This document shows, piece after piece, positions 6,942 through 63,516 of a stretch of 64,000 bases of DNA (position 1 is its first letter; each line of letters starts with the position of its first letter). The position numbers were made by a program, and so were the translations under genes. Under the pieces are notes generated by a model. It was given only the letters and a program-made list of their open reading frames with translations. It did no database searches and was not told the origin of the DNA. Origin of the DNA: an uncultured bacterium (GTDB taxonomy: Bacteria; Patescibacteriota; Minisyncoccia; Phycocordibacterales; DATDWN01); contig CAIQCQ010000034.1 of the NCBI GenBank assembly GCA_903870365.1, forward strand, positions 2,665 to 66,664, read 5' to 3'.

Positions 6942-6947
6942 ATTGTA

Positions 6948-40624: not shown

Positions 40625-40688
40625 GACACCAGATTGGCGACAAACGCTACTGCGTTCGTAGACCGCTGATTCGTGCAAGTCCCTCATA
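40625..40688 (-). repeat. Repeat-D copy (tRNA-downstream palindromic element)
   Basis: CAGATTGGCGACAAAC...GTTCGTAGACC; family shared with 44551, 55031 and 63446. Confidence 0.75.
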
Positions 40689-40744
40689 CAAAGCTCCGCT
40701 TTATTCTCCGGCACAAAAAAACCGCTCACGCGGATTTTTTCTTG

Positions 40745-40827
40745 TGCCGGAGGAGGGACTTGAACCCTCATCCCTTTCGAGACACGATTTTGAGTCGTGC
40801 GCGTATACCAATTCCGCCACTCCGGCT
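40745..40827 (-). tRNA. tRNA-Leu(CAA)
   Basis: Hand-folded; anticodon loop CTCAAAA; long variable arm; T-loop TTCAAGT. Confidence 0.75.
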
Positions 40828-40848
40828 TTAGTGCTAGAATACGTCAAA

Positions 40849-41760
40849 ATGAAGCAAAAATCAACACAAAAACCCACCATCATCGTCATCCTTGGACCGA
40901 CTGCCACCGGCAAGTCTGATTTGGCCGTGGCTGTGGCAAAACAACTGCAGGGTGAGGTCATTTCCGCCGACTCACGCCAGATCTACACCGGTCTCAATAT
41001 TGGTACTGGCAAGATCACCACACGCGAGATGTGTGGTATTCCCCATCACCTGCTTGACGTGGTCAATCCCAAAAAAGTTTTCTCCGTGGCTGAATGGCAA
41101 ACCTTGGCGAATAAAAAAATAGAGGAAATACTAGCTCGTGGCCATACACCGATTATAACTGGTGGTACTGGTTTCTATATCCAATCAATCGTCGACAGCA
41201 TTGTTTTGCCAGAGGTTGCACCAAACCCCGTATTGCGTAAAAAACTGGAACAAAAAAGTCTCGAAGAACTCGTGAGTATGTTGAAAAAACTTGACCCAAA
41301 ACGTATTAAAACTATTGATACCAAAAATCCTGTTCGCCTCATCCGAGCCATCGAGATTGCCACTGAGCTCGGTGTGGTGCCCAAGATAAAAAACCTAAAA
41401 AGTCCGTACCATTTTATCCAAATCGGACTGACTGCTGACCCAGAGATTCTCAAAACACGCATCCACACTCGCCTCCTCAAACGAATGAAACAAGGTATGG
41501 TGGCCGAAGCCACACGCCTGCACACAGCCGGCCTGTCGTACAAACGCATGCGCCAGCTTGGACTGGAGTATCGATACCTGGCTGACTTCCTTGAAAAGAA
41601 AATTACACGAGCAGAACTCGTAGAAAATATATACTCAGGAAATATTGATTATGCCCGACGCCAAATGACATGGTTCAAGCGAGATAAAAAGATTCAGTGG
41701 GTTGACGTGGGCGAGAAAAAACTTTTTCAAAAAGTTATGTTGCTTCTACAACCAAACTAA
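40849..41760 (+). CDS. miaA: tRNA dimethylallyltransferase
   Basis: P-loop GPTATGKS; start moved to MKQKST because the longer ORF overlaps tRNA-Leu. Confidence 0.85.
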   Translation: MKQKSTQKPTIIVILGPTATGKSDLAVAVAKQLQGEVISADSRQIYTGLNIGTGKITTREMCGIPHHLLDVVNPKKVFSVAEWQTLANKKIEEILARGHTPIITGGTGFYIQSIVDSIVLPEVAPNPVLRKKLEQKSLEELVSMLKKLDPKRIKTIDTKNPVRLIRAIEIATELGVVPKIKNLKSPYHFIQIGLTADPEILKTRIHTRLLKRMKQGMVAEATRLHTAGLSYKRMRQLGLEYRYLADFLEKKITRAELVENIYSGNIDYARRQMTWFKRDKKIQWVDVGEKKLFQKVMLLLQPN

Positions 41761-43235
41761 GCTACAAGAAATTTTTCTGGTATATGTTCAAAATCTCCAT
41801 TACTCATAAAGACGACAACATCTCCTTCACATATCTGTTTAGACAAAACACTTAGTGCTTGATTTGGATTTTCTGCGGTGTACATGACCTTACCCATGGC
41901 TGTAATATTTTTCTGTACAACAGAAATATCTATAAAATTATCTTTACTATCACCTGGACGAAACGGTGGTACCACAATAATAGAAAGATCTGCATGTGCA
42001 AGTGCCTCTGGATACACACTTTCAAACGCTTTTCTTCTGCTGGTTATGGATCGAGGTTCAAAAACACACAGTAATCTTTTTTTTGGATAGTGTTGTCGCA
42101 AGCCCTGTAAGGTAACAGAGACCGCAGTCGGGTGATGTGCAAAATCACGAATCACGATAACATCTTTACCTGTGGTGCCTAATATTTCCTGTCGTTCACG
42201 AACACCTGGATATGTTTTGAGACCTTCTCGTATAGCCACCATATCTAGTCCTTCAAATAATGCCAGTGCAAACACAGCGCTGACATTGGCCACATTGTAT
42301 TCACCAAACAGCGGGATTTCTATATCAATATATTTCTCACCTTGTACATGTACAGAAAAAATTGTTCCCGTATTCGTCACCGAAGTGATTTCATACGACA
42401 AATCATTAGATCGTTGGACACCATACACGTACACGTTGCCTGCACACTTGGAAATATCGACATGGGCACAGACTGATTCATGCACAACAAGATGTCCGCC
42501 TGGTGGTATATCATCAACCAAAAACTGAAATGCCTGCTTGTAATCTTCGAATGTTGGATACAAGTCAACATGATCATGCTCAATCGAGGTGATTATTGCA
42601 GAAGTAGGTAGATATCGTAGAAACTTTGGTGCTTTATCAAAATATGCACAGTCATATTCATCACCTTCAAATATGGCGTGCGTGGTATGGACTCCACCGA
42701 CACTGTAACTTTCTCCAGTATGTTGAAACACACCACCAATCAAATATGCAGGATCACATTGTGCAGTCATAAATACATGCACGAGGAGAGAACTCGAGGT
42801 GGTTTTGCCATGTGTCCCCGCCACCACTAATGAACGCTTGTGAGAAATAAGTAACTCTGCCAATACTTCAGAACCAGACATCATAGGAATATCTTTGTCG
42901 CGTGCATACGTCACTTCCTCATCATGTGCCGGAAGCATATTACCTGGCACAAACAAATCAATATCACGCAAATTCTCTATAGACGGAGTTCGGCAATCAA
43001 TGTGGTGGTCACGAAGCACATCGCTCATGGGTGGATGAAAAGAAAAGTCACTACCGGTCACCATGTATCCCGCATCTACCAGCATACAGGCGATGGACGC
43101 CATTGCCTTACCACACACCGCTGATACATGAATCCGGGCACCTGCGACGAGTGTGCCAATTTTTCTTTGTCGTATATGAGCATCTGGTAGGAGATTACGT
43201 TTAGCAAGATAATACAACTCGTAAGATTTCATCAC
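41757..43235 (-). CDS. Mur ligase family protein (MurC / Mpl-like UDP-N-acetylmuramate ligase)
   Basis: GSDFSFHPPMS; AGTHGKTTSSS; EGDEYDCAYFDKAPKF. Confidence 0.7.
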   Translation of the reverse strand: MMKSYELYYLAKRNLLPDAHIRQRKIGTLVAGARIHVSAVCGKAMASIACMLVDAGYMVTGSDFSFHPPMSDVLRDHHIDCRTPSIENLRDIDLFVPGNMLPAHDEEVTYARDKDIPMMSGSEVLAELLISHKRSLVVAGTHGKTTSSSLLVHVFMTAQCDPAYLIGGVFQHTGESYSVGGVHTTHAIFEGDEYDCAYFDKAPKFLRYLPTSAIITSIEHDHVDLYPTFEDYKQAFQFLVDDIPPGGHLVVHESVCAHVDISKCAGNVYVYGVQRSNDLSYEITSVTNTGTIFSVHVQGEKYIDIEIPLFGEYNVANVSAVFALALFEGLDMVAIREGLKTYPGVRERQEILGTTGKDVIVIRDFAHHPTAVSVTLQGLRQHYPKKRLLCVFEPRSITSRRKAFESVYPEALAHADLSIIVVPPFRPGDSKDNFIDISVVQKNITAMGKVMYTAENPNQALSVLSKQICEGDVVVFMSNGDFEHIPEKFLVA

Positions 43236-43296
43236 CCGAGTATATCAAAAAAGTAAACGTAACAAAAAGGGGCAGGCCGTAGCCCACCCCCTTATT

Positions 43297-44289
43297 TTAC
43301 GAACAAAGTATCTCGCGAATTACTTCCCACGAAAAATCAGAGAACCTTTTTCGAGACACCTCGTTGTCACCACAAAAAACACGGTTAGTCAGAATACACA
43401 CAGTAACTGCCGGATCCCGAGTAAAAAACACCCGACACCCCGTCCAGCCGGCAAACAACAACGGCCTGTCTACCGAAATTCCAGTCAGATTTTTCGCGTA
43501 CGGAATATCGAACCCAAGGGCATATTCATAATCCACGATGCCCAGTTTACCAAGCTGATTACTTGATGCTCTATCGTAGAAAAGAGACCGGCGCATTGCA
43601 CCAATCGTGACGTGAAAAATATCTGCAATCATAGCTGCGTCCGAAAACAAACCGGCAGCAACAATATTGTCATGCGGATGATTTGATGACAAAGGATCGT
43701 GGACCAGTCCACGAAGACCCTCATCAGCCCGTGTTGGCACGATCAAGCCTGGTTGAACCAAACCCCGACGAACTGGGTTAAAAAGAAAATTTTCTTTATT
43801 CAAACCACCAAGTAAATGCGTGTGGAGTATATCCTCGATACCTCCAGAAAAAAAACTTTCGAGAAATAAGCCAACGTATGCACTTGCCAAATTATCGTAA
43901 TGAAACTCCTTCTCCCAGTGCGCAAAACCAGTTTTCATTAGAATTTCTTTGAAGGGCCCAAGGTTGCCGATCCGCAACATATCAAAATCAAAAGCATACG
44001 TCTGTACAACGTACGTCATGAAATGCCACAGTTGCCGACCATTACTGTTCGGTACGGACAAAAAGTCACCCAAGTCATCTTCTGGTGATATCGCCTCCTG
44101 AAAAAATAACTTCCACATCAACAGATAGGTCACCGCCTTGGTCAGACTGGATACATCAAACAGTCGTGCACCTTTCGACAAATGTTGACCACCTGAAAAC
44201 TCGATATCAATGGGACCTCTCACACACACATCAAAGTCTGTGAAGAGACCCTCCGCCACACCTCTTTCAAACAGCCTTTGTATGTTCAT
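43297..44289 (-). CDS. serine hydrolase, beta-lactamase / DD-peptidase fold
   Basis: SxxK motif (SSLTK) near the N-terminus; 330 aa. Confidence 0.6.
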   Translation of the reverse strand: MNIQRLFERGVAEGLFTDFDVCVRGPIDIEFSGGQHLSKGARLFDVSSLTKAVTYLLMWKLFFQEAISPEDDLGDFLSVPNSNGRQLWHFMTYVVQTYAFDFDMLRIGNLGPFKEILMKTGFAHWEKEFHYDNLASAYVGLFLESFFSGGIEDILHTHLLGGLNKENFLFNPVRRGLVQPGLIVPTRADEGLRGLVHDPLSSNHPHDNIVAAGLFSDAAMIADIFHVTIGAMRRSLFYDRASSNQLGKLGIVDYEYALGFDIPYAKNLTGISVDRPLLFAGWTGCRVFFTRDPAVTVCILTNRVFCGDNEVSRKRFSDFSWEVIREILCS

Positions 44290-44550
44290 CTACCAACCTC
44301 CGCAAGCAAGTATACCCACCTCGTAATTTTAAGCAAGAAGGACTTTGTGGGTACAATAGAGTGGATAGTTAAAACCACTAAAATTACTTTATCTTTCTAA
44401 TCAACTCCAAAAATTATTTTATCATGTCTCACAACAACAATGACAGGATAAATTTTTGTATTACCAATTTGTAATAGTCTTTCCATATATTTATATATTT
44501 TTTGGAGAAATCTCCCTCGAAAATTTTGCGCCGTCGCTTAAAATTTTCTG

Positions 44551-44612
44551 GTCACCAGTTTGGCGACAAACTCTGCTGAGTTCGTAGACCACCAAACTGT
44601 TCAATTCCTCGA
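44551..44612 (-). repeat. Repeat-D copy
   Basis: CAGTTTGGCGACAAAC...GTTCGTAGACCACCAAACTG downstream of tRNA-Trp. Confidence 0.75.
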
Positions 44613-44634
44613 CAAAAAAACTTCGGTTTTTCTG

Positions 44635-44705
44635 CGGGCCCACGAGGAATCGAACCCCGGTCGCTCCTTTTGGAGAGGAGTATTCTGCCACTAAACTATA
44701 AGCCC
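44635..44705 (-). tRNA. tRNA-Trp(CCA)
   Basis: Hand-folded; anticodon loop CTCCAAA. Confidence 0.7.
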
Positions 44706-44958
44706 GTAAGTTCTCATACTAACAAAAATTCGCCATTTCGGCGAATTTTTGAATACTTTTTGATTATTTCTTTGCTTCCTTGAAGGTAATCCGCTTTCTC
44801 AGCTTTTTTGAGTACTTCTTGAGCTCGATTTTTCGCTCAACTTTCTTCTTATTCTTGCGCGTCCAATACACCTCTCCGGATGCCTTGTTTTTTATTTGGA
44901 TCAATCTGTCTTGTGACATAGTAGGACCATAATAGCCTAAAATCAGCCAGAGAGCAAG

Positions 44959-45801
44959 CTAGTACTTCCGGCTATTGTTTTCAAACAATTCCATGACCTG
45001 CTTGGTCACTGGACCAACATTGCCTGTACCGATCACCGTGTCCCCCACCTTGACCACCGGTACCACGTCTTTAAAGCTCGAGCTGATAAAACACTCATCG
45101 GCATCATAGAGCTCTTCGAGCGATACGTTACATTCCAGCACTTCTAAGCCCTGTGCTCGAGCGAGATCAATGACCACTTTACGTGTCACTCCATACAAAA
45201 TACTATCTTTTGGTGTCAGAATTTTTCCTCCAGCCACCACAAAAAAGTTACTGGTGGCACATTCCAAAATCTGCCGTCGCCAGGTATACAAAGTTTCGAG
45301 TGCATGAGCTTCCTTCATCTTTTTCTGCAACGGCACCGCACTAATGTAATTGATGGTTTTGTACTCTGGATATTCCCGCAAATGTTCTTTGAGTAGGACA
45401 CTCGCTCCATGTGTATAATATTTTTCGTCAATCGGTTTCCACTCTTCAGTAAAGATATAGAATGTTGGGGTGCTCCGATCGTAATCAATACCACCAATTG
45501 CCTCTCCTCCAGTCAAGATGAACTTGATATTTGTCCGTACAAACCCATTTTTCTCTACCAATTCATACATGATCCGAACAATCTCTTCATCACTGACAGG
45601 AACAGGTATATCCAAAAACTGCGCTGACCTACGAAACCGAGCGAGGTGGTCGTCACACATAAAAACCTTCCCATTTAAAGTGGTCAGGGCTTCGTATATA
45701 CCAAAGCCACGCAACATACCAATATCAAAAATACTCACCTTGGCCTCACTCTCTGGTATGATATCTCCGTTTAAGTAGCAATATCGCATAGTGCTCATGA
45801 T
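44959..45801 (-). CDS. class IV aminotransferase (branched-chain amino acid / D-amino acid aminotransferase)
   Basis: Fold-type IV sequence; start moved to MSTMRY because the longer ORF overlaps tRNA-Tyr. Confidence 0.75.
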   Translation of the reverse strand: MMSTMRYCYLNGDIIPESEAKVSIFDIGMLRGFGIYEALTTLNGKVFMCDDHLARFRRSAQFLDIPVPVSDEEIVRIMYELVEKNGFVRTNIKFILTGGEAIGGIDYDRSTPTFYIFTEEWKPIDEKYYTHGASVLLKEHLREYPEYKTINYISAVPLQKKMKEAHALETLYTWRRQILECATSNFFVVAGGKILTPKDSILYGVTRKVVIDLARAQGLEVLECNVSLEELYDADECFISSSFKDVVPVVKVGDTVIGTGNVGPVTKQVMELFENNSRKY

Positions 45802-45849
45802 AACAGAAGAGTGAGGAACAAAAAACACCTTTGTAAGGTGTTTTTTTTG

Positions 45850-45932
45850 TGCGCCGAGTTGGACTCGAACCAACGATACCCAATGGGTGGGAGATTTACA
45901 GTCTCCTGGAATAGCCGCTATCCGATCGGCGC
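45850..45932 (-). tRNA. tRNA-Tyr(GTA)
   Basis: Hand-folded; anticodon loop CTGTAAA; long variable arm; T-loop TTCGAGT. Confidence 0.75.
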
Positions 45933-45998
45933 ATACTTCTGCATATAGGACTGTATCATATTTTTGATATCTAGTAAAAGCATTCTGTTTGCATTTAT

Positions 45999-46391
45999 TT
46001 GGCACAACATAGGAAAAATATGACCCTCGAAGCTCTTTCTGATTATTTTATCGCTGAAGTAGATCCTTGCCTATCAAATACCTTCATGCTGACGTTTCGG
46101 TATGATGAGGCCACAGTAACCATTCGCCTTAAGTTTGCTGATGAAGAAAGTGGTACCGATATGATCATCACCGGTGTCACGACTCATCCGTTTACGGAGA
46201 GAAAAAGTAATTATGCCAACATAGCGTTGCAACAAGTACTCGACTGGGCTGATGAACAAAACCTATGGAGTATCGAAGCCATACGAGTGAGCAGACGGGA
46301 TGAGTCTTTCTGGAGGAGAAATCATTTCTGGCCAATCGGTAACCCCACCAGAGATTTCAAGTTTACACATACACAAAAGAGGACCGAGTGA
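45999..46391 (+). CDS. hypothetical protein
   Basis: 130-aa ORF. Confidence 0.4.
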   Translation: MAQHRKNMTLEALSDYFIAEVDPCLSNTFMLTFRYDEATVTIRLKFADEESGTDMIITGVTTHPFTERKSNYANIALQQVLDWADEQNLWSIEAIRVSRRDESFWRRNHFWPIGNPTRDFKFTHTQKRTE

Positions 46392-46432
46392 ATATACTCA
46401 GTCCTCTTTTTTTATTAGCAACGTAAAATGTT

Positions 46433-49144: not shown

Positions 49145-49286
49145 ATAAATAGAGGTTAGAATCTAGAATTAAGAATTACGAATAATAAAAACTGATAAAA
49201 ACCCTTGATAATAACCAAATTATAGCTAAAAAACCAAAATGTCAAAAAAAAGGATATTATCGATAAATTCTCAAACTTCAAGATTC

Positions 49287-49320
49287 TAGCTTGTAGCTTG
49301 TAGCTTGTAGCTTGTAGCTT
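49287..49320. repeat. tandem heptamer (AGCTTGT) x ~4.7
   Basis: Read directly; immediately 3' of the 49321 ORF. Confidence 0.8.
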
Positions 49321-54444: not shown

Positions 54445-54461
54445 TACAAATAACACATACC

Positions 54462-54791: not shown

Positions 54792-54794
54792 TAC

Positions 54795-54869
54795 GACCTG
54801 GTGGCCAAGTGGTAAGGCGAAGCTCTGCAAAAGCTTTATACGGCGGTTCGATTCCGCCCCAGGTCTCCA
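54795..54869 (+). tRNA. tRNA-Cys(GCA), CCA encoded
   Basis: Hand-folded; anticodon loop CTGCAAA; T-loop TTCGATT. Confidence 0.8.
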
Positions 54870-54895
54870 AGAAAAAGTTTTACTTTTTCTCACAT

Positions 54896-54977
54896 GCCTG
54901 GGTGGTGGAATTGGTTTACACGCACGACTTAAAATCGTGTTCCGCAAGGAATATGGGTTCGACTCCCATCCCAGGCA
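54896..54977 (+). tRNA. tRNA-Leu(TAA)
   Basis: Hand-folded; anticodon loop CTTAAAA; long variable arm. Confidence 0.75.
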
Positions 54978-55030
54978 CTAGAAAATCACAAAGTGATTTT
55001 TAGCTGGGAAACAAAACCAATATCTTGGTT

Positions 55031-55098
55031 TTGTGTTGGGAATCGAACAGATTGTCGGTCTACGCTCACACCAGTGAGTGTCGACAATCTGGTGCCCA
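55031..55098 (+). repeat. Repeat-D copy (10-bp stem CAGATTGTCG / CGACAATCTG)
   Basis: Preceded by an A6CC..GGT6 hairpin; lies between two perfect 26-bp copies of the tRNA-Leu 3' end (54961-54986 and 55136-55161). Confidence 0.8.
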
Positions 55099-55169
55099 GA
55101 AATATTCAAGCGACGGCGAGAACATTTCGAGGGAGACTCCCATCCCAGGCACTAGAAAATACTTTCACA

Positions 55170-55201
55170 AAAAATTTCCATACGTGTATGGAAATTTTTT
55201 G
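55170..55201. terminator. bidirectional terminator hairpin
   Basis: AAAAAATTTCCATAC-g-GTATGGAAATTTTTT. Confidence 0.7.
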
Positions 55202-55207
55202 TATCTG

Positions 55208-55280
55208 TGCGCCCACCAGGGATCGAACCTGGGACCTTGTCCTTAAGAGGGACCTGCTCTACCAGCTGAGCTATAGGCGC
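55208..55280 (-). tRNA. tRNA-Lys(CTT)
   Basis: Hand-folded; anticodon loop CTCTTAA; T-loop TTCGATC. Confidence 0.75.
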
Positions 55281-55487
55281 ATATTAATTTATTCTCACAT
55301 ACCGAGCCTCTACTGTATACCGACCAAAACAGTCCCAAACCAGACAAAAAGTATTCTACCATTTTATTTATGAAAACCAAAGTACACCCCCAGAATTTTC
55401 TACATAAAAAATTATTGATAATCCCCTTTTCATCATTTTCAGAGTTGATATAATTGGTATACACTATTTGTCTTAGTTATAGAAAAA

Positions 55488-56138
55488 ATGAGTAAAAGAA
55501 AATCAAAAATAAAAATCATCTGGACAACAAATTTTGCATACGCAATAGGGCTAATTACTACAGATGGTAACCTATCCAATGATGGTAGACATATTCTCTA
55601 TACAACAAAAGATGAACAACTAGCTATTACATACAAAAAATGCCTAGATATCACAAATAAAATTGGTAAAAAATCAAGAGGATTTGGAAAAGAAAAAAAG
55701 TATTACGTAATACAGTTTGGTGATATAAATTTTTATGAATTTCTTATTACTATTGGAATAACACCCCGCAAATCAAAAACCCTTATACAAATACAAATAC
55801 CAAATAAATATTTTGCGGATTTTTTACGAGGATGTATTGATGGTGACGGTACTATTTCAATATCAGATCATCCAGAGTCACAATACAAACAATTAAAAAT
55901 TCGTTTATCTTCTGCAAGCCCGTTATTTCTTCAATGGATTGGCGAAAAAATAGCTCTTTTGATCAAAACAAAAGGTGGTCATATTTATACAGATAAAACA
56001 AAATCCGTCTCAACACTTTCTTATGCAAAAGCAGATGGTGGAAAAATCCTGAAATGTATGTATTATAAGAAGGATCTTCCTTGTTTAAAAAGAAAAGAGA
56101 AGATTGCTAAAAAATGGGCGAGTGGCGCAATTGGCTAG
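55488..56138 (+). CDS. LAGLIDADG homing endonuclease (two-motif, free-standing)
   Basis: FAYAIGLITTDGNL and FLRGCIDGDGTISI; the last 7 codons and the stop overlap tRNA-Leu(TAG). Confidence 0.8.
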   Translation: MSKRKSKIKIIWTTNFAYAIGLITTDGNLSNDGRHILYTTKDEQLAITYKKCLDITNKIGKKSRGFGKEKKYYVIQFGDINFYEFLITIGITPRKSKTLIQIQIPNKYFADFLRGCIDGDGTISISDHPESQYKQLKIRLSSASPLFLQWIGEKIALLIKTKGGHIYTDKTKSVSTLSYAKADGGKILKCMYYKKDLPCLKRKEKIAKKWASGAIG

Positions 56139-56198
56139 ACGCGCTAGTCTTAGGAACTAGTGGAGCAATCCGTGGGGGTTCAAGTCCCCCCTCGCCCA
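56116..56198 (+). tRNA. tRNA-Leu(TAG)
   Basis: Hand-folded; anticodon loop CTTAGGA; long variable arm; T-loop TTCAAGT. Confidence 0.75.
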
Positions 56199-57820
56199 CC
56201 CTTAGAGACTTTGAGGTCTTCGAGATCATCAAAGGGTGAATTAAGTGTTGTATTTACTACATTTTTTCCTTGAATGGTAAAGTTCAAGAAGATTTTGCGT
56301 ATAAAATAGTCCAATTCTTTCATATCTCTGCTTTTAGCTATATAACTAGCGGTATTATCTAGTAGTTCAAGGAACTCAGCGTAAGTCAGTATATTGACCT
56401 TGCCCTTAGCGATAAGTTTTTGAGCTTTTTGTATCTCCCCATTGATCGTAACTATTTCTGCCTTAGACTTCTGTAAATCTAATTTATACTCATCCTTTAT
56501 TTCCTTTGTCTCATCACTAATAAGCATATCCTTTATCTTGACGATCTTCTCATTTATTTTTCTTTCTTTAGCTTGCAAAGAAAGTACTTGTGTTTTTGCT
56601 TTAGAAATCCTCTGATCAGAAACTATTTTCATTTCTTTGGTGTAGTGATCGTAACTCTTTTCGGATGAAAAAGGCTTTTGATCCAAATACTTACAAATAT
56701 AATCAATCACTACTTTTGCTCTGACTGATTTCCCATACATATCACAGTCATCAGTTTCGCATCTATAATAAAAATAGTTTGTTGTACCCTCTTTCGTTTT
56801 CTTTGCAGTAATACCTGCACTCATAGGCTCACCACACTCTGCACACAAAACCATTCCTCTCAGCAGATCAGCTTTCACACCACCAGTTTTCCTATACTTT
56901 TTTGTGATAGCTATAAGTTGTTTGTCCTTAGAAAGTTTATTGATTGTCATAAACTCTGGAACGGTAATCATGGCTGAAAATCCATAATGTTCAATCAAAT
57001 TGATCACATCATTTTTCCCATAGTTGAGAATACCTGTATAGATAGGGTCTTTCATAAACTTCTCTACCCTTTGCTTGGTCATTTTTATAAATCTTGGCGT
57101 ATGATCCTTATGCCAGGTATGGTAGCCATTACTATTTAGAAAATCAGCTATTTCTGACATAATAACGCCACGCAATCTCATCTTAAATGCTTCTTTGATG
57201 AGAAGAAAATTATTGCCATCTGGCTGCAAACGCTGAAGTGCATCTTTGTAATATCCATGCTTTGCTTTATTGATATACTTGCCCTCACCCACACTTCTCT
57301 TATTACCTCTGCTCACATTATCGCTGAGCTTGTCAGAGTATTCTTTTGACAACACAAAGGTAATGCCTAAAAGCATTTTTCCACTCGTGTCATTTTGAAA
57401 AGTAAAACTGACAAACTTCAAATCTCTGATAATCTGCTTATCAACAAGATCAATAATTTCTCCCGCCTCTTTCATATTTCTAGCAAGACGATCAGGATGC
57501 CATGCTATCACCCCACCGTATTTACCCTTTTTAAGGTCATTGAGTAACTGTCTAAACTTAGGTCTCGTATCAGGCTCTTTTGCCGACTCAGCTTCTACAA
57601 TAATATCTTGCTTCTTTACAGTAATATCATTCCTCTCTGCAAACTCAGTACACTCTGCTATTTGGTCCTGCAAAGAGCGAACTTGTTTATCACTTTCATC
57701 AGTGGATTTTCTAACATAAATTGCATAGACGCAGTCTTCAGGGACAAAAACACTATCACTGCTTTTTAGCTGTTGTAGTGCATTTTTTAGTTCTTCAGGA
57801 GTTGTAATCGGATTAAGCAT
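56180..57820 (-). CDS. large serine recombinase (integrase)
   Basis: N-terminal resolvase domain (AIYVRKSTDESDKQVRSLQDQ) plus a large C-terminal recombinase / zinc-ribbon / coiled-coil region; 546 aa. Confidence 0.85.
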   Translation of the reverse strand: MLNPITTPEELKNALQQLKSSDSVFVPEDCVYAIYVRKSTDESDKQVRSLQDQIAECTEFAERNDITVKKQDIIVEAESAKEPDTRPKFRQLLNDLKKGKYGGVIAWHPDRLARNMKEAGEIIDLVDKQIIRDLKFVSFTFQNDTSGKMLLGITFVLSKEYSDKLSDNVSRGNKRSVGEGKYINKAKHGYYKDALQRLQPDGNNFLLIKEAFKMRLRGVIMSEIADFLNSNGYHTWHKDHTPRFIKMTKQRVEKFMKDPIYTGILNYGKNDVINLIEHYGFSAMITVPEFMTINKLSKDKQLIAITKKYRKTGGVKADLLRGMVLCAECGEPMSAGITAKKTKEGTTNYFYYRCETDDCDMYGKSVRAKVVIDYICKYLDQKPFSSEKSYDHYTKEMKIVSDQRISKAKTQVLSLQAKERKINEKIVKIKDMLISDETKEIKDEYKLDLQKSKAEIVTINGEIQKAQKLIAKGKVNILTYAEFLELLDNTASYIAKSRDMKELDYFIRKIFLNFTIQGKNVVNTTLNSPFDDLEDLKVSKGGRGGT

Positions 57821-57971
57821 AGTTGGCAGTATTTTATCATTTTTGCTTACTACCGCCTAAATACACTGGATTATGAAAAATGGAGTGGTTTTGAGACAAA
57901 CCATAGTATTTACTGGTTACGAGCTATAGAGAGCAGGATCCTTTGAATAGGAGCTGGTGTGGGTCTATATA

Positions 57972-58742
57972 TCAATCAGACCAGCCTAAACGCTCGTTAT
58001 TTTTAGGACGAAACATTTTGAACTTTATTCGGTATTCAACTTCTTTAGATATAAATACGGGATCGCCACCACCATATAAAGAAATCTTTGGCTTTCCATT
58101 TTTCTCATAAAAATCTTTATCGTGTTTCTCTATATCAAAAATAGTAGCTTCATATGCAAGTCGATGCTCGTATGAGAAACCTCTGTCTTTCAATTCTTTC
58201 TCGATATGATCAGGCCACTTGATAATGAGGTTATCTTCAGAGTCATCGAAACGTAGACCGAGTTCAACAAGAAACTGTACGATGCTATTCAGAGGAAAGA
58301 TCACGAGCCAATCTTCTTTCTTTCCAATCGTATCAAGTCCACCGATATATTGATCAAAACAATTATTACGGATGCTGTCTTCGGTAATAGCGACTGCATA
58401 TTTATTCTCTAGGACTCTATCAACAGTAGGTCCCATTTTAGAGCCAAACATATAACCACAGTGCATAAACTCGTCTGTTGGAAAAGTTCGTTCTATGTCT
58501 CCCGATGCTATCCTTTGAAAACGACTAGTTAGACCACTTGCTGAGTCATAATATTCAGTGAACTCGTAATATGTTCCGTATATTCCATGTCTGCCGTTTT
58601 TCTCATATTCTGCGAACATTTCTTTCAACTCCTGTGAAATTTCTGACCCAGCAATTTTCTCAGCCAATCTTTTCCAGTCGACAAACGGCGTAACATCTAA
58701 TTTGTATCCGAATTGTTTTGGGAAGATTTGTTTTCCGAACAT
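57972..58742 (-). CDS. hypothetical protein (island cargo)
   Basis: 256-aa ORF, no recognised motifs. Confidence 0.5.
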   Translation of the reverse strand: MFGKQIFPKQFGYKLDVTPFVDWKRLAEKIAGSEISQELKEMFAEYEKNGRHGIYGTYYEFTEYYDSASGLTSRFQRIASGDIERTFPTDEFMHCGYMFGSKMGPTVDRVLENKYAVAITEDSIRNNCFDQYIGGLDTIGKKEDWLVIFPLNSIVQFLVELGLRFDDSEDNLIIKWPDHIEKELKDRGFSYEHRLAYEATIFDIEKHDKDFYEKNGKPKISLYGGGDPVFISKEVEYRIKFKMFRPKNNERLGWSD

Positions 58743-58772
58743 AGTATTTTTATATAAAGATATTATAGCTTT

Positions 58773-59132
58773 TTATGCACCTATTCGTCCAAACCTTGCA
58801 TCATTGATCATTTGTTCCCACGATGAGAAATAACTTGATAATCGAGATAGATTTCCAAGAGCACCCCAAGCCATAACGGAAAAATGCTCAATTTTTACTT
58901 TCTGTTCCTTACCGTTTTCTTGGTAAAGAACATACAAATGATCTACACCAGCGCCAACGCCCTTTTGACTATTCACACTTTGAATACTTTTGACTGGTAT
59001 AGTAAACATTTTCTTACCACCTTTTGTCTCAAAATATAGATCCATCTTTGTGAGCACAAGTGCACCAGACTTTGTATTGAATAAACCACCTTTGAACTTT
59101 AGTTTATCTTCTTTCTTTATAATTTGTTCCAT
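58773..59132 (-). CDS. hypothetical protein, PH/GRAM-like (bPH-like)
   Basis: GALVLTKMDLYFETKGGKKMFTIPVKSI pattern. Confidence 0.35.
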   Translation of the reverse strand: MEQIIKKEDKLKFKGGLFNTKSGALVLTKMDLYFETKGGKKMFTIPVKSIQSVNSQKGVGAGVDHLYVLYQENGKEQKVKIEHFSVMAWGALGNLSRLSSYFSSWEQMINDARFGRIGA

Positions 59133-59367
59133 GTGTTTTCAGTTATCTAGTAAGCCACATGGAAACTTTTTGATACAAAAAGCCCACCACATGGGTGAGG
59201 GCCGAAGCCCTCCATACCAGTTTCCCGATATGACCTGTAACAGCACCCCATATGATGGGTTTTTTATCTGTTACAGGATTTTTCACCATGCCAGTGATTG
59301 CTCAGTGGTTTAGGCTACTTTTGCTTATTCAGTTGTATACTTCTATCATATCACTTTTCCAATAAAA

Positions 59368-60663
59368 TTAAACTGTTTTAAGAATACTAATAATTTTAAT
59401 GTTATTCTCTAGGACATCTTTAACTTCAGAAGCTACTGGCTCTTTGCCTTTATGGATAATTTCATTTCTAACCAAATCGTAAGATTTTAACCATTTATCC
59501 CATAAACCCTTATCTTTTTCAGCAATAGTAAAACCAATCGCTTCTTTCAATACATCTTTCAGACGGTCTTTAGTCCTCCAATTTTTATCTAGATAATCAA
59601 TTGCATCTTTTTCACTCAATCCTTTATTTTTTTTAAGTTGCTCAATCAAAAAGTTTTCAACAAAAATCTCTAGAGATTGGAAAGATTGCATAACCGCCAA
59701 AGGGTAGTTGCGTATGTTGAATGAGTTTTGCGCATCAAGTAACAAAAGATTGTAGAGATCGGGAGTTTCCCCAGTTTCAAGCATTCTTTCCATTTCTTCT
59801 ATTTCCTTTTTGGACCTATTCATAACCGCTGCTTCTGTATTTACAGGAGAAAAAACCAACCCCTCATTTAAGTCAATAAAATAAACCATGTTTAAAGTTA
59901 CTTCCCCCAATCTCGTAAGATGCTCTTGTTTTGTTACAAATCTATAAGTATCTATGAGATTATTTACGATTTTAAAACAGATTTCTTTTACTTTTTCTTC
60001 TATGAGAGTTCGTGCAGACTCCTCTTCAAGTTCTTCTTTCTTAACTGAAAGATCAAACTGAACATACAGACGAGTAAAACGAAATCGACCATTACGATCC
60101 TTCATCCTCTGAACATTAAACCCAGTGTAATTATGTTCCCACCCCTCAGTAGAGTCCAAAGGTATTTTAGGTCCTACGATGACGTACTTTTGAAAATACA
60201 AAACCTTATCTTCAGCGAAAAAATCTGTTGGATTAGAGACTTCTGTATCAGTTTGTGCTTTCTTTGTCCAAATCTTTGTAGGAATTATTAAAGCTTTTTC
60301 TCCAGTTTCTTTTGAAAATAAGACTTCAATTTCATAGTCATTAGGTATATCAATACAATAAGGGATGTGTAACTCTGCCAAAACATTTCCGTAATCAAAA
60401 TCTTTTAGAAAATCTGAGTCAACATACTTGAACGAAGTTCCTAATTTATAAATACCGCTTACAGGAGTAGGAGAAACATTTTTAAGGTCTACCATTAAAG
60501 CACTCTTTTGTTGTTCTTCTGTCATACTTAAAAATCTCTCCTTATCGACTAAAGAGTTTAATTTAAGAGTCTCCACTCTGTCTTGTATGGAAACTGTCGC
60601 ATCAATAAAGACGGACATCTTTTTTCTTCGTACTGGATCAGACATGACTTTTCCAAGCAACAA
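59368..60663 (-). CDS. hypothetical protein with a C-terminal HEPN-like domain (RNxxxH)
   Basis: LVRNEIIHKG gives the R-N-x3-H motif within the last ~40 residues of a helical C-terminal region; N-terminal 300 aa unknown. Confidence 0.5.
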   Translation of the reverse strand: MLLGKVMSDPVRRKKMSVFIDATVSIQDRVETLKLNSLVDKERFLSMTEEQQKSALMVDLKNVSPTPVSGIYKLGTSFKYVDSDFLKDFDYGNVLAELHIPYCIDIPNDYEIEVLFSKETGEKALIIPTKIWTKKAQTDTEVSNPTDFFAEDKVLYFQKYVIVGPKIPLDSTEGWEHNYTGFNVQRMKDRNGRFRFTRLYVQFDLSVKKEELEEESARTLIEEKVKEICFKIVNNLIDTYRFVTKQEHLTRLGEVTLNMVYFIDLNEGLVFSPVNTEAAVMNRSKKEIEEMERMLETGETPDLYNLLLLDAQNSFNIRNYPLAVMQSFQSLEIFVENFLIEQLKKNKGLSEKDAIDYLDKNWRTKDRLKDVLKEAIGFTIAEKDKGLWDKWLKSYDLVRNEIIHKGKEPVASEVKDVLENNIKIISILKTV

Positions 60664-60982
60664 TTATCTGTATTATTCCGACTACCACTAACGCAGCAGT
60701 TAGCCATTGCATTGCTGTAGCATGACGATCATTACTTTTAGCTAGAGTCTCATTTGATTTAATCAATTTGTCTGTTGTTTCGTGAAGTGCAACTCGATTT
60801 TCTTTTGTTGACTCGGCTACCTGCAACTGAAGTAATTGCAATGACTCCGCTACATTCAAAGAAGCAAGTGCAGTTGCATACCCAGTATGTGCATCCATTT
60901 GAGCACCTAAACCCAAGCCATTTAATTGGGAAAGTTTTTGTTCAACTTGGTCATTTCTAGTTTTGTTTGGTAATTTGTCCAT
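60638..60982 (-). CDS. small coiled-coil protein with a C-terminal TM anchor
   Basis: 114 aa; overlaps the next ORF by 26 nt (translational coupling). Confidence 0.45.
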   Translation of the reverse strand: MDKLPNKTRNDQVEQKLSQLNGLGLGAQMDAHTGYATALASLNVAESLQLLQLQVAESTKENRVALHETTDKLIKSNETLAKSNDRHATAMQWLTAALVVVGIIQIIVAWKSHV

Positions 60983-61084
60983 ATACCCAGTATGATACTC
61001 TCTTCAAAATAAAATGTCATATTCGTGGTATTTACCGTAAAATTATAGTAAACTGTGTTGTAATTAACATTAACAACAATTATC

Positions 61085-62494
61085 ATGTCGAACTCAGAGG
61101 CTACTATTATCAATGACGATCAGGATCTCATTGATGCAGGTTACAAACCACAACTAAAGCGAAAAATTGGTTTCTTTGCTTCCTTCGCAGCCTCATTCTC
61201 CATTATGTCAGTACTCATGGGAGTATTTACAAACTATGGGTATGTACTTGGTAAAGCGGGGCCGTTTGGTTTGTGGACATGGTTTATTGTTGGCTTTGGG
61301 CAGCTCATGGTAGCACTTGTTTTTGCTGAGATGGCAGGGCGTATTCCACTCACAGGAGCTTTGTATAACTGGAATGATAAACTAGGTCATCCTGCGATCA
61401 GTTCTCTTGTCGCTTGGCTCTCAATTTTTGCATACGCCATTGGAGCAGCAGGCATCATTGTCATTATGATGGCACCGCTTCAATCACTCATTGGACACAG
61501 TTTAAGTATGGGTACAATTCAAATAGTTGGACTAGCGATTATTGCTGTTCAAATGTTTATTAGCATTTACGGTATTCGTTTAGCTGCTTCAATAAACAAG
61601 TTTGCTGTTGTTGCTGAGATACTTGCTCTTATTGTTTTCGGTGGATTACTTCTTTTTGTAGTTGCAGCAAAAGGCCAGATCAATACTTCTTACCTAACAA
61701 CAATTCCTAGTACTCCAGTTCCATATTGGCCAGCTTTCCTTATTTCAATTCTTTTGGGAGCTTGGACAATTTTTGGTTTTGAGGCACCATCTGATCTTTC
61801 TGAAGAAACTCTAAATGTGAAACGTATAGTGCCGAAAAGTATTATCTCAGGCATTATCACTTCTATTGTTCTCGGTGCTTTCTTTATTGGAGTAGTAACA
61901 ATTGCCATTCCTAATCTTGCAACAGTTACTGCATCTGCTGATCCTATTTCTACAATCTTCGCTACTCATTTAGGTCAAGGGTTAACAAATGTAATGCTTC
62001 TCATGGTTCTTATTGCGATGTTTGCTACCGCACTTCTCAATCTCACAGTTGCAACTCGTGTTTTGTTTGCAATTTCTCGTGATGAAAAGTTTGTCGGACA
62101 TTCATTGCTCAAAAAAGTTTCTTCTCATGGTATCCCTGTCTATTCTGTCATTGCAATCATTGCAGTTGAAGTCATCACATTCTTAACCATGTACGGACTA
62201 TCAGCAATTTATGCTTCTGCTATTGTTTTACTTGGATTGGCTTACTTGATCACAGTAGTTAATTTTGTGTTGAACATTAAAAAATTACCACCTACAACAA
62301 ACTTTTCATTGGGCAAGTGGCACTGGCCAGTAGTAATAATCTCAATAGTTTGGTTGGTTCTTTTGCTTATTGTTCTCACAATACCGCAAGAGTTCCATCT
62401 AGCAGCAGAGATTGGTGCAGGAGTTGTTATTCTGGGATTTGTACAGTATTTTCTTCAGCGAGCTTCTAAAGGTAAAGTTGTAGCGATTTCCTAA
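61085..62494 (+). CDS. amino acid permease (APC superfamily)
   Basis: 469 aa, 12 TM, APC-type N-terminus. Confidence 0.8.
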   Translation: MSNSEATIINDDQDLIDAGYKPQLKRKIGFFASFAASFSIMSVLMGVFTNYGYVLGKAGPFGLWTWFIVGFGQLMVALVFAEMAGRIPLTGALYNWNDKLGHPAISSLVAWLSIFAYAIGAAGIIVIMMAPLQSLIGHSLSMGTIQIVGLAIIAVQMFISIYGIRLAASINKFAVVAEILALIVFGGLLLFVVAAKGQINTSYLTTIPSTPVPYWPAFLISILLGAWTIFGFEAPSDLSEETLNVKRIVPKSIISGIITSIVLGAFFIGVVTIAIPNLATVTASADPISTIFATHLGQGLTNVMLLMVLIAMFATALLNLTVATRVLFAISRDEKFVGHSLLKKVSSHGIPVYSVIAIIAVEVITFLTMYGLSAIYASAIVLLGLAYLITVVNFVLNIKKLPPTTNFSLGKWHWPVVIISIVWLVLLLIVLTIPQEFHLAAEIGAGVVILGFVQYFLQRASKGKVVAIS

Positions 62495-62958
62495 GTTGTG
62501 GCCGTCTCTTTTGAAGTCATGATCACCTTAGCTGTCGTGAAGGTTCTTCCTTTAACCCTCTTACCTTTTGGACTCCATCCTGCAACTACTTGAAGCCACA
62601 GAGCTACACTTCCTGGATCACCAGTTTGTATAGCTCTCCTGTACAAAGAAAACAAAACATTTTTAGTCAGATTGTGTCCCCACCGAGATATTTCACTTAA
62701 AGACTCATTCTGTTTGATCAGATTATTCCAGTTGGTCAGTGTAGACATTTCAACTCCATACTTTTGAGAAAACTCAGTCTGAGTACGGATTTTGAGTAAC
62801 TCACCATACTGAGCATCTTCGTCGGTAAGTTGCTGTGCTACCCTTTCAGCAATTTGACGCTTCAAAAGCACGGGAATAGTTCTCCATGTTTTATATACTT
62901 CAAACACATCTCTCCTATAGGGTTGTGCTGTATTTTTGGTATTTTTTGGTATTTCCAC
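62491..62958 (-). CDS. hypothetical HTH-containing protein
   Basis: 155 aa; FSQKYGVEMSTLTNW HTH-like. Confidence 0.35.
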   Translation of the reverse strand: MEIPKNTKNTAQPYRRDVFEVYKTWRTIPVLLKRQIAERVAQQLTDEDAQYGELLKIRTQTEFSQKYGVEMSTLTNWNNLIKQNESLSEISRWGHNLTKNVLFSLYRRAIQTGDPGSVALWLQVVAGWSPKGKRVKGRTFTTAKVIMTSKETATT

Positions 62959-63027
62959 AATACCTTAATTTTACCAAATCTCGTCAAAGAAGACAGGGAT
63001 CAGGTACAGAGTTCAAGATAAATACTC

Positions 63028-63243
63028 TTATTGTTTTGGAGGAGGATTTTGACCCAAAGTAATGATTTCTCCTGTCGGAGCGACTACTTGCTGAGGACCA
63101 GATGCTTGGGGCGGCTGAGGGTTACTGACGGGTGCAGGATTTGCTTGTGGAGCAGGAGGTGTCGGAGGAGTTGGAGGTAATACTTCGATCACATCGGTCA
63201 AATTATCTTTGTTTGTAGGTCTAAATGGGCTATTCATAAGCAT
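63028..63243 (-). CDS. hypothetical Pro-rich small protein
   Basis: 71 aa, PPTPPTPPAPQANPAP. Confidence 0.3.
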   Translation of the reverse strand: MLMNSPFRPTNKDNLTDVIEVLPPTPPTPPAPQANPAPVSNPQPPQASGPQQVVAPTGEIITLGQNPPPKQ

Positions 63244-63396
63244 ATTATATCAAATCAGAATGTTACATACAATGCAGATTTCTCTCTTTCTTTAGCCATA
63301 AACTTTCTAATATCATCATTCCACTGCTCTATAGTTTCTATGTTAGTATTTATGATATCGAAAAGTTCAAGCGTAGCATTTAAATGCCCACAAATC

Positions 63397-63420
63397 AAAA
63401 AACCGCGAAAGCGGTTTTTT
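63397..63420. terminator. bidirectional terminator
   Basis: AAAAAACCGC-gaaa-GCGGTTTTTT. Confidence 0.7.
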
Positions 63421-63445
63421 GTTTGGTGCGAGAACAAAACAAAGC

Positions 63446-63516
63446 TTTGTGTGGGAGACTTGAACAGATTGTCGGTCTACGCTCGTACCAACAAGTGTCG
63501 ACAATCTGGCGACTAG
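63446..63516 (+). repeat. Repeat-D copy
   Basis: GAACAGATTGTCGGTCTACGCTC...TGTCGACAATCTGG; same preceding-hairpin architecture as the 55031 copy. Confidence 0.8.

Follow-up and report, generated by a model that had tools for sequence, protein, structure and literature searches.

Transfer RNA (tRNA) genes are classic landing sites of mobile DNA, and the elements known to use them are gene-carrying islands, each tied to one tRNA. Islands and prophages equipped with a tyrosine integrase, as well as their derivatives that have lost the integrase and lie between attL and attR, insert in the 3′ part of the tRNA gene, supply a replacement end, leave the displaced end behind as a repeat, and accrete in tandem. 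MITEs (miniature inverted-repeat transposable elements) and elements of the repetitive extragenic palindrome (REP) type depend on an enzyme encoded elsewhere. Here, we describe a family of short repeats that lie behind tRNA genes in a stretch of 64,000 nt from an uncultured bacterium (GenBank assembly GCA_903870365.1, contig CAIQCQ010000034.1, positions 2,665–66,664, forward strand), referred to below as the window. In contrast to the gene-carrying islands, a module of ~95 nt with a well-supported fold occurs on many tRNA genes and is each time wrapped in tRNA sequence of both orientations. The reading that we favor, at a probability of roughly 45%, is that these repeats are a non-autonomous mobile DNA module, recognized in folded form by an enzyme acting in trans. 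Its grounds are the fixed position and orientation 3′ of tRNA genes, direct repeats next to a tRNA that is itself intact, and orthologous sites that are empty in relatives, with occupancy patchy overall. Further grounds are the existence of copies in tandem, of hybrids, and of decayed copies, the target-matched ends around a conserved core, covariation confined to Watson–Crick pairs, and the lack of coding capacity.

Judged by analogy, the module would act most like a tRNA-targeting integrative element cut down to its attachment region, while its appearance recalls a MITE or a REP-type palindrome. With tRNA-targeting integrative elements it shares the direct repeats of the tRNA 3′ end on both sides, the intact tRNA at one of them, and the existence of tandem units. 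Unlike those elements, it measures 130–190 bp, is free of genes, has no integrase that could be found nearby, places the same core on at least 12 tRNA species, and carries an extra, inverted copy of the tRNA end. As in MITEs, REP and bacterial interspersed mosaic elements (BIMEs), Correia elements, and Rickettsia palindromic elements, the copies are short, non-coding, intergenic, and hairpin-forming, are present in several copies, and combine inverted repeats with a flanking direct repeat; differences in presence and absence between genomes are likewise reminiscent of MITEs. However, the inverted repeats bracketing the module are copies of the local target rather than fixed element sequence, the flanking duplication is variable in length (about 15–28 bp), and insertion is limited to a single position of the tRNA gene. 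The resemblance to REP/BIME sequences ends at the GTAG motif, which forms part of a conserved CGTAGAC located in the bulge between hairpin P2 and the 3′ strand of stem P1 (see below) and is not followed by a hairpin; in REPs, GTAG or CGTC directly precedes a palindrome of 20–40 bp. No RAYT (Y1 HUH) gene was found in the window, which covers 64 kb of the genome. Fixed terminal repeats, a short duplication of constant length, restriction to one tRNA per lineage, an integrase, and a GTAG-plus-palindrome arrangement—the features that define these kinds of elements—are all absent from the module.

Detection and Distribution of the Family

A covariance model was built from the copies of the family and run with cmsearch on the window and on other loci. 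It yielded exactly four matches in the window, with E-values from 1e-22 to 6e-16 (from best to weakest, with strands as reported by cmsearch: 55045–55137 (−), 44510–44602 (+), 63462–63556 (−), and 40582–40676 (+)), which confirms the four related repeats that a preliminary description of this DNA had placed there. Similarity between the copies, aligned in one orientation, spans ~100 nt, and folding of each window copy compared with shuffled sequences gave z-scores of −5.2 to −6.0. The octamer CGTAGACC occurs seven times in the window as against 0.59 expected, the three extra occurrences being located within coding sequence. The stem recognized in the preliminary description belongs to a larger unit, which comprises a 93-nt core with a further AT-rich hairpin (P3/P4) and tRNA-derived segments on both flanks. 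This second hairpin module, the inverted tRNA-derived segment, and the link of copy 4 to a tRNA are features that had previously gone unnoticed.

Outside the window, contigs are designated L001–L038. When species-representative genomes were scanned once with a strict pattern, five loci proved true (they belong to Paceibacterota, Parcubacteria, and Saccharibacteria), and the remaining 15 hits were chance matches in GC-rich genes; a scan of metagenomes added six loci, two of which are the same places as genome-scan matches. Contigs syntenic with the window were gathered through homologues of its RbfA-type protein, which group the window with Parcubacteria relatives such as Zambryskibacteria. The core is present in at least seven other Patescibacteria contigs, and the tRNA species concerned, at least 12 in number, include those for Leu (CAA, TAA, TAG, GAG), Trp, Tyr, Lys, Glu, Asn, Val, and Arg as well as an intron-containing one.

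The tRNA genes were called with ARAGORN, which detects eight in the window, four of them without a module. All four window copies are associated with a tRNA 3′ end. In all sequence examined, 16 of 24 cores lie 28–78 nt from a tRNA 3′ end in one fixed orientation. The remaining eight comprise a second tandem unit, copies split by insertions, the copy at the intron-containing tRNA, the L019 copy, the orphan L026a, and copies at contig ends; most of these are explained by the tandem arrangement, the insertion, or the intron-containing tRNA. In L014, for example, a later insertion separates the copy from its tRNA by roughly 850 nt, and L026b sits behind a tRNA with a group I intron (Rfam, 81.5 bits), which ARAGORN misses. 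The only clearly orphan strong copy, that of L019, is immediately followed by an IS3-family transposase (rve domains, 2602–3889), which probably explains the loss of its tRNA.

Fold and Covariation of the Core

The consensus fold of the core consists of two arms, P1/P2 and P4/P3. P1 has 10 bp and is prolonged by two invariant pairs to a 12-bp stem, followed by the hairpin P2 of 5 bp with a tetraloop; on one side of this arm, a 4-nt bulge reads GTCT in the tRNA sense. What had been taken for a loop of ~24 nt is thus not a loop, as it consists of the covarying hairpin P2 and the 4-nt bulge. P3 is an AT-rich hairpin of 9–14 bp with a GAGCGACGGCGAA-like loop, extended by the 3-bp helix P4, which is CCC/GGG or, in a second core type, TTT/AAA.

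In an alignment of 21 sequences (16 in a smaller covariation set), standard pairs account for 97.2% of cells, and 25 of 29 pairs show compensatory changes on both sides. Pairing as good as that observed was reached by none of 500 shuffles, and controls with slid partners lowered it to 32–46%. The covariation previously noted between stems of the window copies is therefore borne out (CAGTTTGG/CCAAACTG versus CAGATTGTCG/CGACAATCTG), and P1 variants across the family—CAGATTGTCG, CAGTTTGTCG, CAGATTGGCG, CGGACTCGCG, CAGACTCACG, GGAATCCACG, GGATTGTCG, and GAATCAGCG—each occur with their exact complement. The claim that the stem stays complementary in every copy does not hold for copy 1, in which the two P1 strands no longer match well. 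Conserved nucleotides at junctions and in loops comprise ACA, CGTAGAC, CTGGKCAC, TCTCCCTCGAAA, and the loop GCCGTCGC.

The helices are almost entirely of the Watson–Crick type, with G–U in 11 of 609 cells (1.8%). When the one invariant position is excluded, the wobble cells possible on the two strands number 7 and 9, and neither strand is in excess. Such near-pure Watson–Crick pairing is the look expected of DNA palindromes. The invariant position, located between the two invariant pairs and P2, is an A·C opposition that would correspond to G·U on the tRNA-sense strand.

Segments Copied from the Neighboring tRNA

Read in the sense of the tRNA, the module follows the order tRNA, hairpin, inverted copy of the T-stem 3′ strand and T-loop, core, and direct repeat; beyond the latter, the original downstream DNA resumes, often with the original terminator. 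The GTGTTGGGA-like spacer of the preliminary description is indeed present and can now be identified as the reverse complement of the T-stem and T-loop of the neighboring tRNA. When the inverted segment was compared with 44 tRNAs, its own tRNA was the best match in 13 of 19 cases and among the top three in 18. The tRNA-Val of L010, with a T·G pair in its T-stem, shows that the segment is a genuine inverted copy, since what the module contains there is complementary to the 3′ strand and not identical to the 5′ strand. Inverted and direct copies can pair with each other and thereby close the core into a three-way junction, as seen in three of the four copies of the window.

Two classes of modules are distinguished. 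In the long class (copies 1, 3, and 4), a terminator or trailer hairpin lies between tRNA and module, and the acceptor 3′ strand recurs in inverted form behind it, so that the end of the tRNA makes up a long palindrome with its own mirror image; a small AT-rich hairpin separates the acceptor-derived from the T-stem-derived parts. In the short class (copy 2), the small AT-rich hairpin comes straight after the tRNA. The A6CC/GGT6 hairpin said to precede each copy applies to copies 1 and 4, which have an A6CCGCG...T6 terminator, whereas copies 2 and 3 have a weaker AT-rich hairpin in its place.

The direct repeat usually begins at T-loop position 57–59, just past G53-T-T-C56. At the tRNA-Leu(CAA) of L001, which carries another core type, it takes in the whole T-loop, an observation that led to the rejection of a reverse-transcriptase stop at a modified T-loop base as the cause of the repeat boundary. 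In tRNAs that bear a module, the 16-mer at the 3′ end recurs 122–165 nt downstream (289 nt for a tandem pair) with 0–3 mismatches, the repeat being decayed or displaced in copies 1, 2, and 4 and in a few others, as compared with 5–8 mismatches in tRNAs without a module. The repeat often holds up to nine bases of the trailer rather than CCA and therefore derives from the gene or the precursor and not from the mature tRNA.

Copy 3 illustrates this arrangement. Direct repeat 1 (54961–54986, plus strand) consists of the last 17 nt of tRNA-Leu(TAA) (54896–54978), starting from the T-loop G57, and 9 nt of trailer; direct repeat 2 (55135–55160, plus strand), the displaced original tRNA 3′ end with its trailer, is identical to it in 26 of 26 positions, in full agreement with the two perfect 26-bp copies reported before. 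In L014, L031, L032, L036, L037, and L038, the site behind tRNA-Leu(TAA) is empty, the tRNA being directly followed by spacer or by tRNA-Lys. Relative to these six related loci, the 174 bp found in the window (54987–55160, plus strand) therefore represent an insertion, which settles the comparison of the tRNA-Leu(TAA) locus that the preliminary description had suggested.

The behavior of the core and its flanks differs. The cores at tRNA-Glu (L023) and tRNA-Asn (L025) are 94% identical; their homology is confined to the stretch from ATCTCCC to CTGTTCGAT, and everything outside it, including the small hairpin, differs between the two and matches the local tRNA. It follows that the core spreads while the tRNA-matching parts are renewed at each site. 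The same pair of copies led us to reject a scheme with one lineage per tRNA and repeats borne by the element.

Occupancy and Turnover

At the orthologous genes for tRNA-Trp, -Tyr, -Leu(TAA), -Lys, and -Leu(TAG), occupancy varies among the window, L031, L032, L036, L037, and L038. In the window, modules stand at Trp, Leu(TAA), Leu(TAG), and Leu(CAA); in L031, at Tyr, Lys, and Leu(TAG), the last site carrying two units of different core type in tandem and, in addition, a remnant; in L032, at Leu(TAG) only. L036 has a module of a reduced type beside Lys (7940–8060), and L037 and L038 have almost none. A filled tRNA-Trp site (L018) and an empty one (L032) have nearly identical tRNAs, but the lack of synteny in their flanks prevents an exact delimitation of the inserted segment. 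As a side observation, the tRNA-Lys gene of the window (55207–55280, minus strand) is inverted with respect to the order Cys/Leu(TAA)/Lys/Leu(TAG) seen in L014, L031, L032, L037, and L038; the same inversion occurs in L036, also with a module between Leu(TAA) and Lys. Recombination between modules may be behind it.

Tandem arrays are found in L022 and L031, and remnants in L031 and L014. The tandem pair of L022 has diverged cores (79% matches over the whole repeat unit) next to identical terminators and tRNA-derived parts. Similarly, two copies located 4.3 kb apart in L026 are identical in their tRNA-derived parts and terminator and different in their cores; in this region (2840–7340 and 7389–7655), they flank a 4.2-kb block of open reading frames (ORFs), one with a DUF4238 domain and the rest without a Pfam match, and the tRNA behind the second copy is the one with the group I intron. 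Hybrids also exist. Copy 1 combines the P1 5′ strand of one type with the 3′ strand of another, and in L010 (3300–3560), one copy of the tRNA-Val type and one of the tRNA-Arg type are fused head to head, with the joint (3380–3400) at GTCG|ACA, exactly the boundary between P1 and the internal loop. This fusion is followed by a reduced module with a P3-like hairpin only, of the same type as that beside tRNA-Lys in L036.

The nearest relatives of each core reside at other tRNA species and on other contigs, and similarity tracks neither genome nor tRNA type. The covariance model also gives weaker matches to other core types in the fetched loci. Still others are missed by the model (L001 2664–2850, L014 3580–3708, L032 11609–11760, and L038 about 10880–11130) and were recognized by their inverted and direct tRNA repeats alone; all of them keep a P3-like hairpin whose loop is of the CGACGG type. 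The superfamily is thus wider than the core type of the window.

Anatomy of the Window Copies and the Island at tRNA-Leu(TAG)

The coordinates of all module parts were verified against the sequence. Copy 1 (40569–40743, minus strand) lies 3′ of tRNA-Leu(CAA) (40744–40826, minus strand) and is decayed. Its core (40582–40676, minus strand; 76.7 bits in cmsearch) contains P3 at 40592–40621, P2 at 40643–40656, and CGTAGAC at 40657–40663. The P1 5′ strand (40630–40639) reads CAGATTGGCG and the 3′ strand (40664–40673) CGCTGATTCG, the partner of another P1 type; this 3′ strand is also present in the tRNA-Leu(TAG) unit of L031. The adaptor (40674–40740) runs from the inverted T-loop/T-stem copy (40674–40685) through a small hairpin (40686–40705) and the inverted acceptor 3′ strand CTCCGGCACA (40706–40715) to a bidirectional terminator (40716–40740) and forms one long palindrome together with the tRNA end. 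The worn direct repeat of the tRNA 3′ end (40569–40584) has the reverse complement AAGTCCTTCCTTACCA, to be compared with AAGTCCCTCCTCCGGCACA in the tRNA.

Copy 2 (44500–44633, minus strand), the short-class copy, lies 3′ of tRNA-Trp (44634–44705, minus strand), whose end is abutted by the small hairpin (44614–44631). The inverted T-loop/T-stem copy (44600–44613) and a decayed direct repeat (44500–44512) enclose the core (44510–44602, minus strand; 96.8 bits), with P3 at 44519–44548, P1 at 44556–44565 paired with 44590–44599, P2 at 44569–44582, and CGTAGAC at 44583–44589.

In copy 3, located 3′ of tRNA-Leu(TAA), the trailer palindrome hairpin (54982–55000), an inverted acceptor-like segment (55001–55010), the small hairpin (55009–55034), and the inverted T-stem/T-loop copy (55035–55048) precede the core (55045–55137, plus strand; 104 bits), which is followed by direct repeat 2 and then by a strong terminator (55166–55203). 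The P1/P2 arm is made up of P1 (55048–55057 with 55082–55091), the bulge GTCT and AC (55058–55063), and P2 (55065–55078); the P4/P3 arm, of P4 (55095–55097 with 55131–55133) and P3 (55100–55128) with the loop AAGCGACGGCGA.

Copy 4 (63392–63573, plus strand) seemed to be the only one without a tRNA, three of the four copies having been placed correctly behind tRNA genes in the preliminary description. Its tRNA-derived parts resemble tRNA-Leu(TAG) (56115–56201, plus strand), which lies 7.2 kb upstream and to which it belongs. In L028, a near-identical strain with the same RbfA protein, the tRNA (...CTCGCCCAC|AAATCAAAAAACCGCG...) runs straight into the left flank of copy 4, whereas the window and strain L027 carry an insertion at this junction. 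In the window, the inserted island (56200–63391, 7,192 bp) is bounded by GCCCAC (56194–56199 and 63386–63391) and opens at the tRNA-Leu(TAG) end with the gene of a large serine recombinase (56180–57820, minus strand). Thus, copy 4 looks isolated because this island was later inserted between tRNA and module. The island ends show no similarity to the core.

The left parts of copy 4 are a terminator (63397–63420), an inverted acceptor-like segment (63424–63434), and the small hairpin (63435–63452); an inverted T-stem/T-loop copy (63451–63465) leads to the core (63462–63556, plus strand; 86.2 bits), with P1 at 63465–63474 paired with 63499–63508, P2 at 63482–63495, and P3 at 63517–63546. The decayed direct repeat (63555–63573) reads AGTCCCCCTCACCCCCACC, compared with AGTCCCCCCTCGCCCACC in the tRNA. 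A C-rich tract, CCCCCTCACCCCCACCCCCCACACCCAC (63558–63590), lies just past copy 4 and overlaps this decayed copy of the tRNA-Leu(TAG) end.

The cargo of the island consists of an amino-acid permease and several ORFs without a Pfam match. It also includes a full-length LOOT RNA (Rfam RF03000, 90 bits; 59197–59316, minus strand), an RNA of unknown function that is therefore carried on a mobile element here. Between tRNA-Lys and tRNA-Leu(TAG), outside any intron, a free-standing LAGLIDADG-type ORF of 216 amino acids is located at 55488–56138 (plus strand); it is also found in strains L027 and L028, and a related ORF lies near clpB in L033. In the Zambryskibacteria-like contigs L034/L035 (8436–16609), another island with a large serine recombinase occupies the Cys/Leu(TAA) tRNA pair. 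With its N6/N4 methylase, ResIII helicase, and two ThsB-TIR proteins, it looks like a defense island.

Coding Capacity, RNA Families, and Enzymes

No ORF is conserved in frame between copies, and ORFs within modules run into tRNA genes. The small ORFs that had been singled out as spurious do exist; they overlap tRNA genes and are hence not real coding sequences. With Rfam (release 15) at gathering thresholds, the modules remained unmatched in the window as well as in nine loci, the only hits in the window being tRNAs and the LOOT RNA; with E-values up to 10 on the regions of copies 1–3, the core again had no match, and unrelated families appeared at chance level over flanking hairpins. ARAGORN detected neither a tRNA nor a tmRNA (transfer-messenger RNA) within modules, and no hammerhead-like or other ribozyme core was found by eye. 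A sub-threshold Hammerhead_II match in L014 (3249–3309, minus strand; 21.5 bits, E=0.13) falls outside the module, in the roughly 690 nt between two modules behind tRNA-Leu(TAG), and is likely due to chance. In full-text literature searches, no description of such an element was found. This non-coding, hairpin-rich module family is apparently undescribed.

A promoter scan revealed neither enrichment nor conserved boxes on either strand. In several copies checked (copy 3, L025, L032, and L018-Trp), the distal direct repeat abuts a terminator, which leaves no room for a promoter of a transcript antisense to the tRNA. A sense transcript could, in view of the strong terminator between tRNA and module in the long class, arise by read-through only; in the short class, the arrangement makes co-transcription with the tRNA plausible.

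Pfam searches covered 50 ORFs of the window (three large ORFs at 32.5–37.8 kb were left out) and the neighbors of copies in L001, L010, L019, L023, L025, and L026. The enzyme-type matches were the serine recombinase of the later island, the free-standing LAGLIDADG ORF, and the IS3 transposase beside the orphan copy.

Mobile DNA and Its Alternatives

Several observations weigh against a mobile DNA module. The main gap is that we know of no transposition or integration mechanism that yields both an inverted and a direct copy of a target of 13–30 nt. Furthermore, the two copies decay independently of each other: a perfect direct repeat goes with a worn inverted copy in copy 3 (26/26) and L018-Trp (27/27), and the opposite holds for copy 1 and L026b, where a worn direct repeat goes with an inverted copy that is perfect through trailer and terminator; the copies are therefore not simply made once at insertion. 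Copy 3 is kept in all three strain-level contigs covering the site, and no polymorphism within the species is seen there. No candidate for a mobilizing enzyme emerged from Pfam in the window ORFs or beside the copies, and neither an excised form nor an autonomous relative was found in viral, phage, or plasmid collections (pattern scans of IMG/VR viral contigs and blastn against phage and plasmid collections gave no matches). As an RNA, the tRNA-sense strand folds better than its complement by 2–12 kcal/mol in 20 of 20 copies. This difference arises mainly from the invariant A·C (G·U) position, and the strand evidence is weak because it rests largely on that one position. Finally, conserved unpaired nucleotides beside covarying stems, shared by Saccharibacteria and Parcubacteria, are also the classic signature of a functional RNA.

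A mobile DNA module might work as follows. Insertion would take place in the T-loop between positions 56 and 57, just past the universal G53-T-T-C56, and the module would bring a replacement for the 3′ part of the tRNA, by which the tRNA gene stays functional. The hairpins would be recognized as folded DNA, either single-stranded or cruciform, by an enzyme encoded elsewhere, e.g., of the HUH type or a structure-specific recombinase. The tRNA-matching segments would be copied from the local tRNA rather than brought from the previous site, possibly by a templated route such as snap-back at the terminator or trailer hairpin; alternatively, quasi-palindrome correction and gene conversion could maintain the matched ends. 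Recombination between the direct repeats could remove the module precisely.

Parts of such a scheme have counterparts elsewhere. Integron attC sites and the attP of CTX phage, which is formed by two inverted sites, are recombination sites that work as folded single strands. Covarying stems with few conserved bases are common to attC and the module, in which conserved mismatches and bulges could mark the strand, and an inverted pair of target-like sequences could, as in CTX attP, fold into a mimic of a double-stranded target. Unlike in attC, the R″/R′ core sites RYYYAAC...GTTRRRY at the ends of the imperfect palindrome are absent (GTTGGGA of copy 3 deviates at the last position, and no such motif occurs in the remaining copies), an integron or Xer context is lacking, and insertion is targeted to a tRNA gene. 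The mitochondrial retroplasmids of Neurospora (Mauriceville/Varkud) gain tRNA sequence when the copying enzyme switches templates, and then use homologous recombination to integrate at tRNA genes. They would provide a precedent for a copy-choice pickup of tRNA sequence, and snap-back priming would explain palindromes centered on the terminator loop; in contrast to the retroplasmids, no reverse transcriptase was seen, and the trailer instead of CCA in the module repeats would make DNA or a precursor the template. IS91-family elements insert next to GTTC or CTTG and have subterminal imperfect palindromes, and IS801/IS1294 carry a single palindrome beside the GTTC cleavage site at the terminus (10.1101/2025.01.24.634351). 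Likewise, the module junction comes right after the T-loop GTTC, with P1/P2 directly followed by GTTC on one strand. However, at the opposite end of the core, the preceding bases are NNTC or ACTT rather than GTTC, and IS91 elements neither duplicate the target nor copy it in their ends, as opposed to the direct repeat of the module. No HUH gene was seen among the window ORFs and the copy neighbors searched with Pfam. By analogy, the resemblance to IS91 may serve as a lead toward an HUH-type enzyme and does not amount to membership.

A structured non-coding RNA, transcribed in the same sense as the tRNA when its promoter is read through, is the most serious alternative to the mobile DNA module, though we hold it to be rather unlikely. 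The T-stem-like helix, accompanied in the long class by an acceptor-like one, could allow RNase P, RNase Z, and the CCA-adding enzyme to process or stabilize such an RNA; in a variant, the 3′ tRNA-matching segment would be a guide, as in transposon-encoded guide RNAs, and mobility would be that of the RNA gene. The conserved junction and loop nucleotides beside strongly covarying stems speak for an RNA, as do the invariant potential G·U and the lower folding energy on the tRNA-sense strand, the existence of a short class with just a weak AT-rich hairpin between tRNA and module, and the conservation of the core sequence between Saccharibacteria and Parcubacteria contigs. On the other hand, the long class has a strong GC-rich terminator between tRNA and module and no room for a promoter, and the acceptor-like helix, worn in copies 1 and 2, is lacking altogether from the short class. 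Resemblance to the top half of a tmRNA-type molecule fails at the same helix, and also because the T-stem-like helix closes the whole core instead of a 7-nt loop. Moreover, G–U pairs are very rare and show no strand bias beyond the one invariant position, most orthologous tRNAs of relatives lack the module, and neither an Rfam family nor promoter enrichment was found.

Less probable is the view that the core is the scaffold of a programmable, nucleic-acid-templated insertion system and that the tRNA-matching segments are guides rewritten from each target. The rewriting could proceed by template switching or through an RNA or complementary DNA intermediate, and a single 93-nt core could thus be retargeted to the T-loop of any tRNA gene while regenerating that gene. 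TnpB and IscB guide RNAs of IS200/IS605 elements, which consist of a scaffold followed by the flanking target, first came to notice as RNA-like structures conserved at the ends of transposons, and the module shares with them a structured scaffold directly followed by a stretch that matches the insertion site. In contrast to these guide RNAs, it has no Rfam match to them and no TnpB, IscB, or TnpA nearby, and contains an internal inverted copy that would mask the guide. If it were true, such a system would constitute a new class of target-copying mobile element or guide RNA specific to bacteria of the candidate phyla radiation.

Scars or attachment sites of larger integrative elements at tRNA 3′ ends, with the core as a remnant of an element arm or as a site used by islands, had been considered in the preliminary description and seem improbable to us. 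Direct repeats of the tRNA 3′ end do flank the module in the manner of attL and attR, and islands do make use of these tRNA ends: tRNA-Leu(TAG) in the window, tRNA-Leu(TAA) in L034/L035, and the space between the two copies of L026. Yet random deletion would not give the constant small size and architecture that are shared by over 20 independent copies spread across 12 or more tRNA species. The fold is conserved and its stems covary, the ends of the window island are unlike the core, strain L028 has copy 4 without the island, an inverted tRNA segment is foreign to att sites, and no larger relative turned up in viral, phage, or plasmid collections. Still more improbable is a device of the host for tRNA expression, be it a terminator or a signal for 3′ processing, as had also been proposed, or an insulator: the position is always 3′ of tRNAs and terminator-like hairpins are included, but half of the window tRNAs (4/8) and most orthologous tRNAs in relatives do without a module and have ordinary terminators, tandem arrays, hybrids, and decayed copies are unexpected of a host signal, and a terminator would be a much simpler structure than the 93-nt core. 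Peptide coding was rejected, the differences between copies being paired changes in stems and the ORFs overlapping tRNA genes.

Implications

Whichever of these readings applies, the family is missing from Rfam, and gene callers make spurious ORFs of its modules; the covariance model obtained here makes a census possible. If the module acts as an RNA, it would represent a new, widespread class of structured RNA linked to tRNAs. If it is mobile DNA, it would point to an undescribed structure-specific enzyme as well as an undescribed way of renewing target-matched ends. It would then also be a source of rearrangement—in the form of hybrids, tandem arrays, the inverted tRNA-Lys, and additional copies of tRNA ends for islands—in the very small genomes of Patescibacteria.

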